IMG/VR virus record: IMGVR_UViG_3300019371_000265
Span: 32,001-96,000 of that record
DNA: 64,000 nt
Strand: one strand, 5' to 3'
Source of the DNA: a virus
Lineage: Duplodnaviria > Caudoviricetes
Part shown: positions 2,837 through 36,285 of the stretch, piece by piece
Layout of the letters: the number at the start of each line of letters is the position of its first letter
Position numbering within the stretch: position 1 is the stretch's first letter
Notes under the pieces: model-generated
What the model was told of the DNA's origin: nothing
Seen by the model: the letters and a program-made list of their open reading frames with translations, nothing else
Database searches by the model: none
Position numbers and translations under genes: made by a program

Positions 2837-2862
2837 AAGTCTTGTTTTCCTGCGCCAACAGG
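2837..2862 (-). promoter_or_regulatory. UUGGCG hairpin + AAACAAGACUU motif
   Basis: Minus strand cctg-ttggcg-cagg-a-aaacaagactt. Confidence 0.7.
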
Positions 2863-12181: not shown

Positions 12182-12295
12182 ACCTATTACCTATCCCTTC
12201 TCCATCAAATACGAATTTTACATCATCTGTTAACGTGCTACATCTTTCGCATTATCTCTCCTTTTAGTTTGCAACATTTTATTTCAAATTATCAG

Positions 12296-12367
12296 CAGGG
12301 CTAGTTGGATTTGAACCAACGAATGCAGGAGTCAAAGTCCTGTGCCTTACCGCTTGGCGATAGCCCT
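12296..12367 (-). tRNA. tRNA-Gln (TTG)
   Basis: Cloverleaf: acceptor agggcta/tagccct, anticodon arm cagga-ctTTGac-tcctg, T-arm gttgg-ttcaaat-ccaac. Confidence 0.95.
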
Positions 12368-12400: not shown

Positions 12401-12429
12401 TTGACTAATGCTACGAAATTTGCTATAAT
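12401..12429 (+). promoter_or_regulatory. Strong SigA promoter, antisense to the early operon
   Basis: TTGACT-17-TATAAT with TGn extended -10. Confidence 0.8.
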
Positions 12430-12435
12430 TTAATG

Positions 12436-12575
12436 GCAGTATTCCTTACTGCGGTCTTAAGCATTTCTAAATGCGGAGCCTCCTTTAATGGGTGACACCT
12501 ATGTTTATTCTTTATTGCTTAAGTCTTGTTTAAATCCCCAGGAGTGCGCCAACACGTTTGTACTGGGGATTATTT
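12436..12575 (+). ncRNA. Putative ~135-nt regulatory sRNA
   Basis: Own promoter; stems gcagta/tactgc, cttaagca/tgcttaag, atccccag/ctggggat + T-rich tail; no ORF. Confidence 0.6.
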
Positions 12576-12872
12576 TATAATCTCTAATTCTATGTATTTG
12601 TCTGGATATGTAATTGCATAATGAATAGTATTAATATCTTCTGTAAATAACACCTCCAATATTCCACTTTTAGGTATGTCGTCTAACGTTTCTACATATC
12701 TCCTGATCCTCCTTCCTTGTTTGAACAAACATTTAAATGAAATATCTGTTATAATATAATCTCCAATTTCACGAACCATCTCGTCATAGTTACACTCCCT
12801 CATCGCCGCCTCCGTTTTCGAACGTTTGTTCTTTATTAATCTTATTATAGCGCCATTTTTATCCAGTGTCAA
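12570..12872 (-). CDS. Hypothetical protein
   Basis: ORF track; start uncertain. Confidence 0.5.
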   Translation of the reverse strand: MTLDKNGAIIRLIKNKRSKTEAAMRECNYDEMVREIGDYIITDISFKCLFKQGRRIRRYVETLDDIPKSGILEVLFTEDINTIHYAITYPDKYIELEIIK

Positions 12873-12932: not shown

Positions 12933-13979
12933 CTATTTATAATAGATGCTGCTCATGATATATGGTCTATAAATTTTTCTAACATCAGTGCCTTTCAATT
13001 TATCTCCAAATTTTTCAGATATTTCTTGTAAAATCTTACACCATTCATCATTTTTATAATCATCGTATTCTACAAATATTTTGCAGAAATTAGTATCACT
13101 ATAATTGTACAATTGTCTTCGCGCAAAGTTTACGAATCCGGATTTATGAAGTAAATCTATGTTTATGTCATCATATTTAGATCCGTATGTTCCATTAATC
13201 GAAAGTAAATGTGGAATTATATCCCGAACATCTTTTGAAATAATTTTTTGTAGAACCACCTTCTTATCTTCATTGAAAGTTTCTATATACTTTTGTAAGT
13301 CCATAGTTTCATTGATTTTGCTTTTAATTAATAATCCATGAACTGACATTAATCTTAATTGATCCAAGAGAACCTTATCTTTTGATACCCTTACTTTAAT
13401 ATATACATTGTCATTAATATATCCATTTATATATGAAAAAAGTAGTTCAGATCCATGAAAGACCCTATTTTTAAATCGAATTGTATTCTCGTCAAAATTC
13501 ACATCGGTTAATTTTATATTCGCAAATTCTTTTGCGTTCCGTATACCCTCAAAAAATCCATACACCAGCATACCATAATAATTTTTATTGTATTCAATGT
13601 CTTTAATAATGTTACGTATGTCTTCCTTGTACAGTATCTTAATATCCTTCTTCTCAATTAGCGTGTTAATCAACATCTTTTGCGATAAGGCATCAAATTC
13701 AGCGAATGGATTTATAAAAGTGTATCCATTATTCACACACCATTCAAAAAATTGGTTCAGGTAACTGATGTTTTCCATGAGATATTGCATGCTCTTAGTT
13801 TTACCACACATATCTTCGATGATTAAATCAACATATTCTTTCACCTTTAAATTAAACAAATCCTTCTCATAAATATATGGCTTCATTAAAAAGGCCTTCT
13901 GTTTATCAGTATATTTCTTGTAATTACAAAAATCTTCTATCATTTTCTTATAGTCTTCTACCGTATATTTAGTACTCAT
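12933..13979 (-). CDS. MrpR/YopR-like lytic repressor (tyrosine-recombinase fold, catalytic motifs degenerate)
   Basis: FFEGIRxxxEFxNIKLTDVNFDENTI; LHKSG in place of HxxR; own promoter with operator box. Confidence 0.65.
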   Translation of the reverse strand: MSTKYTVEDYKKMIEDFCNYKKYTDKQKAFLMKPYIYEKDLFNLKVKEYVDLIIEDMCGKTKSMQYLMENISYLNQFFEWCVNNGYTFINPFAEFDALSQKMLINTLIEKKDIKILYKEDIRNIIKDIEYNKNYYGMLVYGFFEGIRNAKEFANIKLTDVNFDENTIRFKNRVFHGSELLFSYINGYINDNVYIKVRVSKDKVLLDQLRLMSVHGLLIKSKINETMDLQKYIETFNEDKKVVLQKIISKDVRDIIPHLLSINGTYGSKYDDINIDLLHKSGFVNFARRQLYNYSDTNFCKIFVEYDDYKNDEWCKILQEISEKFGDKLKGTDVRKIYRPYIMSSIYYK

Positions 13980-14008: not shown

Positions 14009-14051
14009 ATCATATCACAATAATAGGAAAAGGTCAATTTTATTTCAATCT
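14009..14051 (-). promoter_or_regulatory. Promoter of MrpR-like gene with operator abutting -35
   Basis: TTGACC-17-TATGAT; box 14037-14051. Confidence 0.7.
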
Positions 14052-14475
14052 ACATTGCATAAGAAAATGCAAATGAAAACTGTAGTTTAATCGCGTCGCA
14101 TATACGATTTATAACATTTCCATCTTTAATTTCTCCAATCTTACGATATAGACATTCCTTGGGTATAGAATCTGGGCTTTCAATGAGTAAAATACTATCG
14201 CTTTTCAATCCATTACAATCATCTGATGGCATATACACATGAACTGGCGACATCTTGTTTATTTTGGATGAAATCGGATAAATATTTACTTGTGAAGAAA
14301 ATTTATTAAACGTATCGTTAGACATTACCAAAACCGGTCTTCTTCCATACTGCTTGCTGCTCTTGATCCTGTCTTCTGTTTTAGGAATATAGGCATCCCA
14401 AATTTCCCCTCCTAATGGAGTAGGTATCCTCCTATAATTGTCGTCAATTCTATTTTCATTGTGCATATTTCTCAC
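14050..14475 (-). CDS. PemK/MazF-family endoribonuclease toxin (no adjacent MazE)
   Basis: GEIW...QYGRRPVLVMSNDTFNK...PISSK...GLKSDS. Confidence 0.85.
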   Translation of the reverse strand: MRNMHNENRIDDNYRRIPTPLGGEIWDAYIPKTEDRIKSSKQYGRRPVLVMSNDTFNKFSSQVNIYPISSKINKMSPVHVYMPSDDCNGLKSDSILLIESPDSIPKECLYRKIGEIKDGNVINRICDAIKLQFSFAFSYAM

Positions 14476-14549
14476 CTTATGACCTACTTATATCGGTCAC
14501 TACTCCTCTCACTATTTTTTGTTAGGGATTGTTGGTATAAATAATATCC

Positions 14550-14575
14550 AAGTCCTGTTTGCTCCGCCAAGAGCA
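14550..14575 (-). promoter_or_regulatory. UUGGCG hairpin + AAACAGGACUU motif in mazF leader
   Basis: tgctc-ttggcg-gagca-aacaggactt. Confidence 0.7.
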
Positions 14576-22523: not shown

Positions 22524-22828
22524 CCCCGTGTTAAGCTGTTTTAGCTACCAAGCACTCTCCAAACATTTCCATATACTCTACTTCCGTCATGATGCAAGCT
22601 GCCAATTCTGTTCTATAAATTACGTATCTGATTCCTCTTGAAATAAATGTTTCTGGTTTTGTATTCTTCATGTCTGATCTCTCCCATTCTGATTGTTTAA
22701 ATCTTGTTTTTACTCTGCCATGAGTTTATAAATAGTTTCGTTTAATTCATTAAATCCGCAGAATACCATTTCACCTGTAGTAGTATTAGTAAGACAATAT
22801 CCGTATGTATATGTAGTAATTGAGAATC

Positions 22829-33856: not shown

Positions 33857-33929
33857 AGTTTGAAATAAAATGTTGACATGGTGATATATGGGTGCTATAC
33901 TATGGATAGGTAATAGATGGAAATAAAAT
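33857..33929 (+). promoter_or_regulatory. Major rightward SigA promoter flanked by two operator boxes
   Basis: AGTTTGAAATAAAAT 33857; TTGACA-17-TATACT 33873-33901; AGATGGAAATAAAAT 33915. Confidence 0.8.
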
Positions 33930-34019
33930 TTAGCAAGGAGGTATGGGTATGATTACATTCATAGATAACAGCATCTACAGACAGGTACTCTACTGAAAAA
34001 TATTCAACTATACATATAA

Positions 34020-34051
34020 GGTATTTGGCGATACCAGTTAAAACAGGACTT
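34020..34051 (+). promoter_or_regulatory. UUGGCG hairpin + AAACAGGACUU motif
   Basis: ggtat-ttggcg-atacc-agtta-aaacaggactt. Confidence 0.7.
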
Positions 34052-34225
34052 GAAGTTTGTATCAGATTAATAATCCAGATAAAATGTAACAGAAAATTAT
34101 GTAAGGAAAATATAGATGATAAAGGTGTTTTTCTGCGAAGATTTAACGTGAGTTAAGTCGAAGCAATAAGTACTCTTTTTATATATATTCTTTCTTTACA
34201 GGGGACTGTAAAAATTAATGGTGAA

Positions 34226-35465: not shown

Positions 35466-35771
35466 ATGACTACTATTGAACACAACCAGGACAACAATAA
35501 TGAAAACTGTATTGAATTTCTTACAAACATGCGTAAAATTTCATTCACATTCACAGCTCGTAAGTGGATCAACAAGGTAAAGAAGTTAAAAGAGGAACAT
35601 CCAGATGACATTGACTATGTGGAGAATCCTGATGGCAGTATCTTCGGTCACGCACCTATAAAATATTTTAAGTTGTCGGCTCCACGAAAAGTTGAATTAT
35701 CTGAAGAACAGAAAATTGAGCGTGCTGCCAGAATGAGAACTATTGCAAAAAATAGAATTGATAACAAATAA
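35466..35771 (+). CDS. Conserved-looking phage hypothetical protein
   Basis: ENCIEF...KWINKVKKL...ENPDGSI..H.P. Confidence 0.7.
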   Translation: MTTIEHNQDNNNENCIEFLTNMRKISFTFTARKWINKVKKLKEEHPDDIDYVENPDGSIFGHAPIKYFKLSAPRKVELSEEQKIERAARMRTIAKNRIDNK

Positions 35772-35915
35772 CATTGGCATGTTGAAAACTACAAGATGAG
35801 TATTCAAATCAAGCATCAATTTCGGCTCAAACATATGAGCATGAACATTTTATCACTAACTACTTAAAACCGTAAATCGGTACAAATTTTATGAGAATAT
35901 AAAGGAGAATATGAA

Positions 35916-36255: not shown

Positions 36256-36285
36256 AGGCATTGGCGTGCCTGTAGAACAAGACTT
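36256..36285 (+). promoter_or_regulatory. UUGGCG hairpin + GAACAAGACUU motif upstream of RNAP gene
   Basis: aggca-ttggcg-tgcct-gta-gaacaagactt. Confidence 0.7.

Follow-up and report, generated by a model that had tools for sequence, protein, structure and literature searches.

A candidate trans-acting antisense RNA with dispersed leader targets in an SPbeta-like temperate phage

Do positions 12,401 to 12,577 of this phage DNA encode a small RNA (sRNA), and does that RNA act in trans on the distant leaders that carry its complement? The window analyzed here is the whole 64,000-nt stretch, part of a 126-kb virus record (IMGVR_UViG_3300019371_000265) with a GC content of 34%. Its genome organization is like that of SPbeta-type temperate phages. 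The phage encodes a YonO-like RNA polymerase of 997 aa (phrog_8308 match, DxDGD motif), Yon-family neighbours were seen in one relative, and we infer a Clostridia-like gut bacterium as the host. Comparison among related phages suggests, with a probability of roughly 0.6, that this SPbeta-like temperate phage uses the locus to make an antisense RNA that acts in trans as a repressor and would silence its targets in the lysogen.

The small RNA gene and its conservation

The sRNA was compared between the window phage and four homologous loci (G006, L230, L243, and L289), which were found through neighbour proteins at 43-76% identity; the comparison thus covers five sequences related by descent. 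The features of the locus are as follows.

12401-12429 (+), sigma-70-type promoter with extended -10, TTGACT-17-TG.TATAAT; the -35, spacing, TG, and -10 are kept in 5/5 phages
12436-12577 (+), predicted sRNA of ~140 nt with its own promoter and a U-tailed hairpin
12436-12452 (+), 5' hairpin of the sRNA
12455-12463/12516-12524 (+), helix 2, with a variable interior
12525-12532 (+), single-stranded linker
12533-12541/12563-12571 (+), terminal stem with an invariant internal loop, followed by a U-rich tail
12516-12531 (+), second seed, formed by the linker and the 3' strand of helix 2, with 11-16 nt of predicted pairing to target boxes
12547-12552 (+), putative apical CGCCAA kissing loop, invariant in 5/5 phages

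The near-consensus extended promoter had been reported in an initial annotation of this DNA made from the letters alone, and its conservation in all five phages bears out that report, a lone match of this kind not being significant (23 such matches in the sequence versus 18.4 in shuffles). All four homologues keep the TG-extended promoter, 5' hairpin, helix 2, linker, terminal stem with the invariant apical region, and U-rich tail; within the apical region, the 3-bp apical stem and the 4x5 internal loop are both invariant. The consensus fold of the plus strand reached -36.3 kcal/mol with a covariation term of -4.2, compared with -26.6 kcal/mol and a term of +1.5 for the minus strand. Both sides had changed in 11 of the 31 plus-strand pairs, and many of these pairs are G-U, which become A-C mismatches on the reverse strand (at least 11 stem positions). 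Because the covariation and the G-U pairs fit the plus strand and mismatch on the reverse strand, the folded molecule would be the plus-strand RNA, and on these comparisons it is almost certain that a real plus-strand sRNA exists at the locus.

Several details of the earlier description were refined. The positions given for AAGUCUUGUUU (12521-12531) and for the CGCCAA apical loop (12547-12552) are both correct; AAGUCUUGUUU, described as mostly linker, is single-stranded in its last 8 nt, and its first 3 nt belong to helix 2. The RNA had been called ORF-less, but a 30-codon ORF (12488-12580) exists in this phage, alone of the five, and a peptide-coding role was rejected for lack of conservation. 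The U-tail of the terminator-like hairpin is clearer in the homologues, although the terminator scan did not call this 3' hairpin because of its internal loop. The anti-SD-like CCUCCUU is present in the window phage, but it falls in the variable region and is missing from 4/4 homologues, and anti-SD pairing by this motif was therefore rejected.

No Rfam family matched the sRNA, including a pistol-ribozyme-like identity that was considered, and no homologue was found among GenBank phages. A covariance model detected no copy in more distant YonO phages, whose records are fragmentary, so that absence is not proven there. Exact-pattern scans of viral contigs returned almost only chance matches, and metagenome and genome scans with a MazF alignment yielded no further clade members. 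Literature searches with little coverage of subscription journals found no such RNA described in SPbeta-like phages and yielded no comparable RNA from other phages.

Target elements and compensatory changes

Four elements complementary to both halves of the sRNA had been noted at 2837, 14550, 34020, and 36256, and they were recovered at 2837-2858 (-), 14550-14570 (-), 34025-34051 (+), and 36261-36285 (+). This bipartite complement, a UUGGCG loop plus a box, occurs four times in the window versus 0.01 times expected, and none of 100 shuffles reached four. All four elements lie on the coding strand; UUGGCG forms the loop of a 4-5-bp stem, the stem sequences differ, and the target box (11-16 nt) lies just 3' of each UUGGCG hairpin. 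The targets had been taken as replication, RNA polymerase, and toxin transcripts, which holds except that one of the four precedes a HAD-domain gene instead. The target features, including those outside the window, are listed below.

2837-2862 (-), target element before the HAD-domain (PF18143) gene in the leftward early arm, 83 nt upstream
14545-14575 (-), target element in the mazF-like leader, ~20 nt after the promoter at 14627-14599; 13 contiguous linker pairs; kept in 6 phages
34020-34053 (+), rightward early operon, target element in the leader (promoter ~33874); a winged-helix initiator-like gene follows 416 nt downstream
36256-36285 (+), target element before the YonO-like RNA polymerase gene, 81 nt upstream
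22697-22725 (-), degenerate target upstream of a 46-aa ORF, with loop AUGGCA and a box that forms 13 contiguous pairs; G006 has it as well
G000:C1 24180-24213 (-), outside the window, sixth exact-loop target, 392 nt before the Sak, DnaB, primase, and DNA polymerase III operon
G000:C1 9524-9550 (-), outside the window, hairpin-plus-box match within the NAD ligase coding sequence, immediately ahead of the BRCT domain; shared with G006

The Sak-operon target has a box of the one-base-shifted type, and this site is absent in G006. The match in the NAD ligase ORF is strong and may be either a coding coincidence or an in-ORF target. When the 44 UUGGCG sites of the genome were ranked by linker pairing energy, the top six were all hairpin loops (hypergeometric P ~1e-5); linker-paired hairpin sites did not occur in 100 genome shuffles, and none of 300 shuffled linkers reached six.

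Variation between the phages provided evidence on pairing. Three linker alleles were found among the five sRNA phages. Against its own sRNA, the mazF-leader box forms 13 contiguous pairs in the window phage, 16/16 in G006, L243, and L289, and 15/16 in L230, and swapping sRNA and box between allele groups introduced internal mismatches. The pair at box position 8 is A-U in three phages, U-G or C-G in G006, and U-A in L289. Two separate targets in G006 had changed this same position, one to U and one to C, each restoring pairing with the linker G. For the L289 clade, the altered box was seen first, and the matching linker was predicted before its sequence was read and then found (16/16 pairs). 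The rightward-operon site of G006 is also compensated, with 14 contiguous pairs and -16.5 kcal/mol versus -10.7 kcal/mol with the linker of the window phage, whereas the G006 RNA polymerase and HAD boxes retain the old sequence type, so that pairing requires a 1-nt bulge (-9.7 and -11.4 versus -12.1 kcal/mol). Three phages retain both the RNA polymerase site and the rightward-operon site. Of the 11 deviations in the 11-nt core, at sites that are related by descent and not independent, 10 were A>G or C>U; these are compatible with G-U pairing and are the only changes that a plus-strand partner tolerates, pointing to such a partner. The more distant phage L288, which has the same mazF-mrpR block, lacks both the sRNA and the element. 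The initial annotation had proposed trans pairing through the loop and the linker, and these compensatory changes lend that proposal comparative support: the sRNA very probably pairs in trans with the target leaders.

The elements could also be read as cis-acting protein-binding RNA sites, in the form of a nut-like hairpin plus box, with the minus strand of 12521-12552 as one more copy and the complementarity as a by-product. Such a copy would lie in the direction of the early operon and after a strong promoter, and loop and box are near-invariant within one genome. It would, however, be disrupted by the A-C mismatches of the minus strand, and conservation of the plus-strand promoter and U-tail would have no place in it. 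The target deviations are almost all of the kind predicted by plus-strand pairing alone, and the box shifts between phages in step with the linker. This reading is thus improbable, and trans pairing is retained below.

Several minor features were seen near these elements. A hairpin at window 35770-35800 (+), with loop UUGGCA and a weak box (-10.2 kcal/mol), lies upstream of ORF 35916; it is within chance range and not clearly kept in G006. Immediately 5' of the stem, several targets have the word UACAUA or another one likewise rich in A, which could pair with the invariant internal-loop strand of the sRNA as a possible third contact. Related phages without this sRNA (L025:7406, L286:7456, and L287:8388) have another conserved leader hairpin with a UGGCAG-type loop directly after the rightward early promoter; its stems covary, it was present in a single copy in the one record searched whole, and it is possibly a parallel system with another partner.

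The control block and a possible SOS link

The minus-strand control block contains, in order, an integrase-like gene, a promoter and leader, the mazF-like gene, the MrpR/SroF-like gene, the 77-aa ORF, an intergenic gap, and tRNA-Gln. Its features and the operator-like repeats of the window are as follows.

14050-14466 (-), MazF/PemK-like RNase gene, PF02452, 138 aa, without a protein antitoxin ORF
12933-13979 (-), MrpR/SroF-like integrase-fold repressor candidate, 348 aa, with its own promoter at 14037-14009
12872-12844 (-), consensus promoter of the 77-aa gene
12820-12831 (-), LexA box GAAC-N4-GTTC, kept in 5/5 sRNA phages
12570-12803 (-), Sar-like antirepressor candidate, 77 aa, whose stop codon overlaps the sRNA terminator stem in all homologues
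12295-12367 (-), tRNA-Gln(UUG)
6356, 6410, 12286, 12905, 14047, 14640, 33861, and 36229, copies of an operator-like repeat with core TGAAATAAAA

No MazE-like ORF was found beside the mazF-like gene, raising the question of whether the sRNA is chiefly an antitoxin or tuner for this orphan mazF, an RNA replacement for MazE, with the other sites secondary or decaying. All six loci seen have the mazF site, and its pairing with the cognate sRNA is complete in four of the five phages; in G006, the RNA polymerase and HAD sites lag behind the linker change, and the Sak-operon site is missing. Nevertheless, the rightward-operon site of G006 has been compensated as well, this site and that of the RNA polymerase persist in three phages, and five to six non-toxin sites with intact, sequence-different stems are unexpected under decay. 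Since L288 also has mazF without the sRNA or the element, we consider a role centred on mazF unlikely and prefer a repressor RNA acting on the whole target set.

The 348-aa repressor candidate matched phrog_1 (E 1e-6), with PF22823 weak or faint on homologues. Its best structural matches in the PDB were to phi3T SroF (9rd5 and 9rgl; E 2e-3 and 1e-2), which are weak and rest on a low-confidence model of pLDDT 62. The operator-like repeat abuts the -35 elements of several early promoters, among them the ones that drive the mazF and rightward leaders, and is a candidate binding site of the MrpR/SroF-like protein, resembling the SroF/MrpR operator in role (PMC10516654). Neither this repeat nor a LexA box was found at the sRNA promoter. 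Because the repeat precedes the early promoters and not that of the sRNA, repression of the early promoters should leave synthesis of the sRNA running.

The convergent LexA-controlled gene, which the initial annotation had missed, is a possible off-switch. SOS control through a LexA box has been described for Sar antirepressor genes (10.1101/2025.11.27.690993). The 77-aa product is a soluble alpha/beta protein for which a fold search gave no clear match, YopT not being among the listed matches. A modelled complex of this protein with the repressor candidate favours binding, with a score of 0.71 versus 0.00 for the best control; among reference pairs, 58 of 80 solved and 2 of 110 mismatched ones attain this mark. 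The partner pLDDT was at least 77, and the runs agreed on at least 0% of contacts. As a like complex (9rgl) has been solved, the score may reflect likeness only. Given the overlap of the stop codon with the terminator stem and the lack of a minus-strand U-tract at this place, transcription induced by SOS should traverse the entire sRNA gene in the direction of the tRNA; the downstream minus-strand tRNA-Gln(UUG) likewise makes such crossing plausible. The read-through transcript would be a perfect antisense and could remove the sRNA, an outcome that we find plausible and stop short of favouring.

The overlap of the sRNA 3' end with the stop codon of this LexA-controlled gene in all homologues would also suit an sRNA acting in cis only on the convergent antirepressor transcript, in the manner of P22 sar or a type I antisense. 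This would leave unexplained the four to six distant hairpins complementary to the sRNA and their compensatory changes, and a purely cis role is accordingly most improbable; a cis effect may exist alongside the trans action that we prefer.

The block is similar to the SroF(MrpR)-Sar switch of SPbeta and phi3T in its integrase-fold repressor, repeated operator-like element, LexA-boxed small gene just downstream, and MazF link (PMC10516654, 10.1101/2025.11.27.690993, PMC10769878). Unlike the phi3T switch, which involves host MazEF, MazF is here phage-encoded without MazE, and the Sar candidate abuts the repressor gene and overlaps the sRNA terminator. Neither such an sRNA nor a leader tag was found in these switch papers or in GenBank phages. 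The tRNA adjoining the sRNA promoter varies, being Gln in the window phage and L243, apparently degenerate in G006, a different tRNA in L230, and absent in L289.

Known antisense RNAs and a proposed mode of action

The sRNA loop resembles that of CopA (CopA/CopT of R1). Inc RNA/RNAI of the I-complex plasmids (ColIb-P9, IncB, and IncK) and CopA/CopT have in common a CGCCAA antisense loop against a UUGGCG target loop, and they are cis-encoded, fully complementary to one rep leader, and carried by enterobacterial plasmids. The phage sRNA differs in having at least five unlinked targets with unrelated stems that share only loop and box, and the strand opposite it carries the 3' end of a LexA-boxed small gene rather than a rep leader. 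UUGGCG is the known target motif of plasmid Inc RNA (PMC10724649). Within this family, kissing begins at the top loop, and strand exchange is helped by the interior loop (PMC10724649); the phage sRNA is similar in its internal loop just under the apical stem and in the predicted loop-loop contact followed by a single-stranded 5' segment (PMC10724649). Against Rfam PK-repBA (RF01089), the sRNA scored 21 bits, below the cut-off of 45, a weak resemblance.

The initial annotation had drawn an analogy to P4 CI and P1 C4. The two-seed design agrees with it, but the contact is closer to plasmid Inc/CopA loop kissing. Like the sRNA, P1/P7 C4 and P4 CI are phage-encoded RNAs with two short separated seeds against bipartite targets and are thought to maintain lysogeny. 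C4 and CI lie on the same strand and in the same operon as their targets and are processed from that transcript, whereas the sRNA has an independent opposite-strand promoter and a genome-wide target set, with targets 2-44 kb away. The Rfam C4 and IsrK covariance models gave no match to the sRNA at E up to 5. C4 sequence changes give specificity groups (heteroimmunity, PMC12197685). P22 sar RNA and lambda OOP RNA are similar as small antisense RNAs opposite an antirepressor or decision gene (PMC12197685), but each has a single target and no kissing-loop regulon. Type I toxin-antitoxin systems differ in that the gene opposite the sRNA encodes a soluble 77-aa alpha/beta protein and no small hydrophobic toxin; the toxin target here would be the 138-aa MazF 2 kb off, with whose leader the predicted pairing is conserved. 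By analogy, the sRNA works like a plasmid kissing-loop antisense RNA at the contact and like C4/CI in its apparent role, and it departs from a defining feature of each family.

We propose that the CGCCAA loop would first kiss UUGGCG-loop hairpins on nascent phage transcripts, after which the U-rich linker would pair with the box 3' of the hairpin and strand invasion into helix 2 would extend the duplex to 11-16 bp. This order is suggested because loop and linker are cheap to open (computed costs of 1.9 and 2.3-3.6 kcal/mol, respectively) and the Inc RNA-type features are invariant. The result would be less orphan MazF, YonO-like RNA polymerase, rightward early operon, and parts of the replication arm, with the sRNA as a second lock beside the MrpR/SroF-like repressor. 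Upon SOS induction, the LexA-controlled minus-strand transcript would make the Sar-like antirepressor and read on through the sRNA gene as a perfect complement, so that one transcript could lift both locks, repressor protein and sRNA.

All of the pairing evidence is silent on sign, and the sRNA might activate the same sites, for instance by antitermination in trans or by stabilising long early transcripts, or might mainly time lytic genes during infection instead of acting in the lysogen. In keeping with this, the elements lie near promoters or long-operon gene junctions, up to 416 nt from the start codon, in a nut site-like manner, and target folding showed no inhibitory change. However, an sRNA promoter without operator-like repeat or LexA box should be on in the lysogen, when expression of the RNA polymerase and replication genes has to be shut down; RNAs already known to use this loop pair are inhibitors (PMC10724649), and the SOS-induced antisense would remove the sRNA just when an activator is needed. 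Activation or lytic timing is therefore rather unlikely, and repression in the lysogen remains our preferred reading. In phi3T, MazF activity favours lysogeny (PMC10769878), and given that role, the sign of a lysogen RNA repressing mazF together with lytic genes is not obvious; the mazF tag is most simply read as a means of holding down, in the lysogen, an RNase that has no antitoxin.

To our knowledge, known phage immunity RNAs control one operon each, and known kissing-loop RNAs control one plasmid gene each. Here, plasmid loop chemistry is apparently shared by many unlinked transcripts of one large temperate phage, in which allele-specific compensation has occurred naturally. If true, the SPbeta-type lysis-lysogeny switch would gain a further layer made of RNA, the presence in a phage of MazF without its MazE would be explained, and orthogonal sRNA-tag pairs taken from nature would become available for controlling genes in Clostridia-like bacteria; the existing sRNA/box variants also make swapped rescue easy to design. 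New here is the convergent LexA-boxed Sar-like antirepressor candidate, whose read-through transcript could neutralise the sRNA on SOS induction. A wider version is tentative and, taken as a whole, doubtful. In it, one plasmid-type kissing-loop sRNA would command an RNA repressor regulon spanning the phage, keep the transcripts for toxin, RNA polymerase, and replication silent in the lysogen, replace MazE and the arbitrium link of SPbeta-like phages, define immunity groups through co-varying linker/box alleles, and be turned off by 3' read-through of the SOS-induced antirepressor mRNA.

We infer that the step after pairing would be termination, decay, or a standby-site block. Folds with loop and box held open revealed no shared terminator or SD switch in the target leaders, a cis pseudoknot partner was sought there and not found, and the target sites lie 50-416 nt from the next start codon. 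As a guess, Rho-dependent termination of the kind seen in P4 might act at the A- and C-rich unstructured stretches after several boxes. In the mazF leader, a strong SD with a hairpin downstream of it is conserved, and most copies also contain a short upstream ORF, an arrangement that would allow coupled-translation control as in repY or tap. In the window phage, this strong SD and a 7-codon upstream ORF within the conserved hairpin lie at 14462-14500 (-); the own SD of mazF is poor, and the 7-codon ORF is fused in frame to mazF in L230. The rightward leader likewise contains an SD-led ORF of ~17 codons (window 33927-33987, +) between the promoter and the target hairpin, which is kept in G006 and L285.
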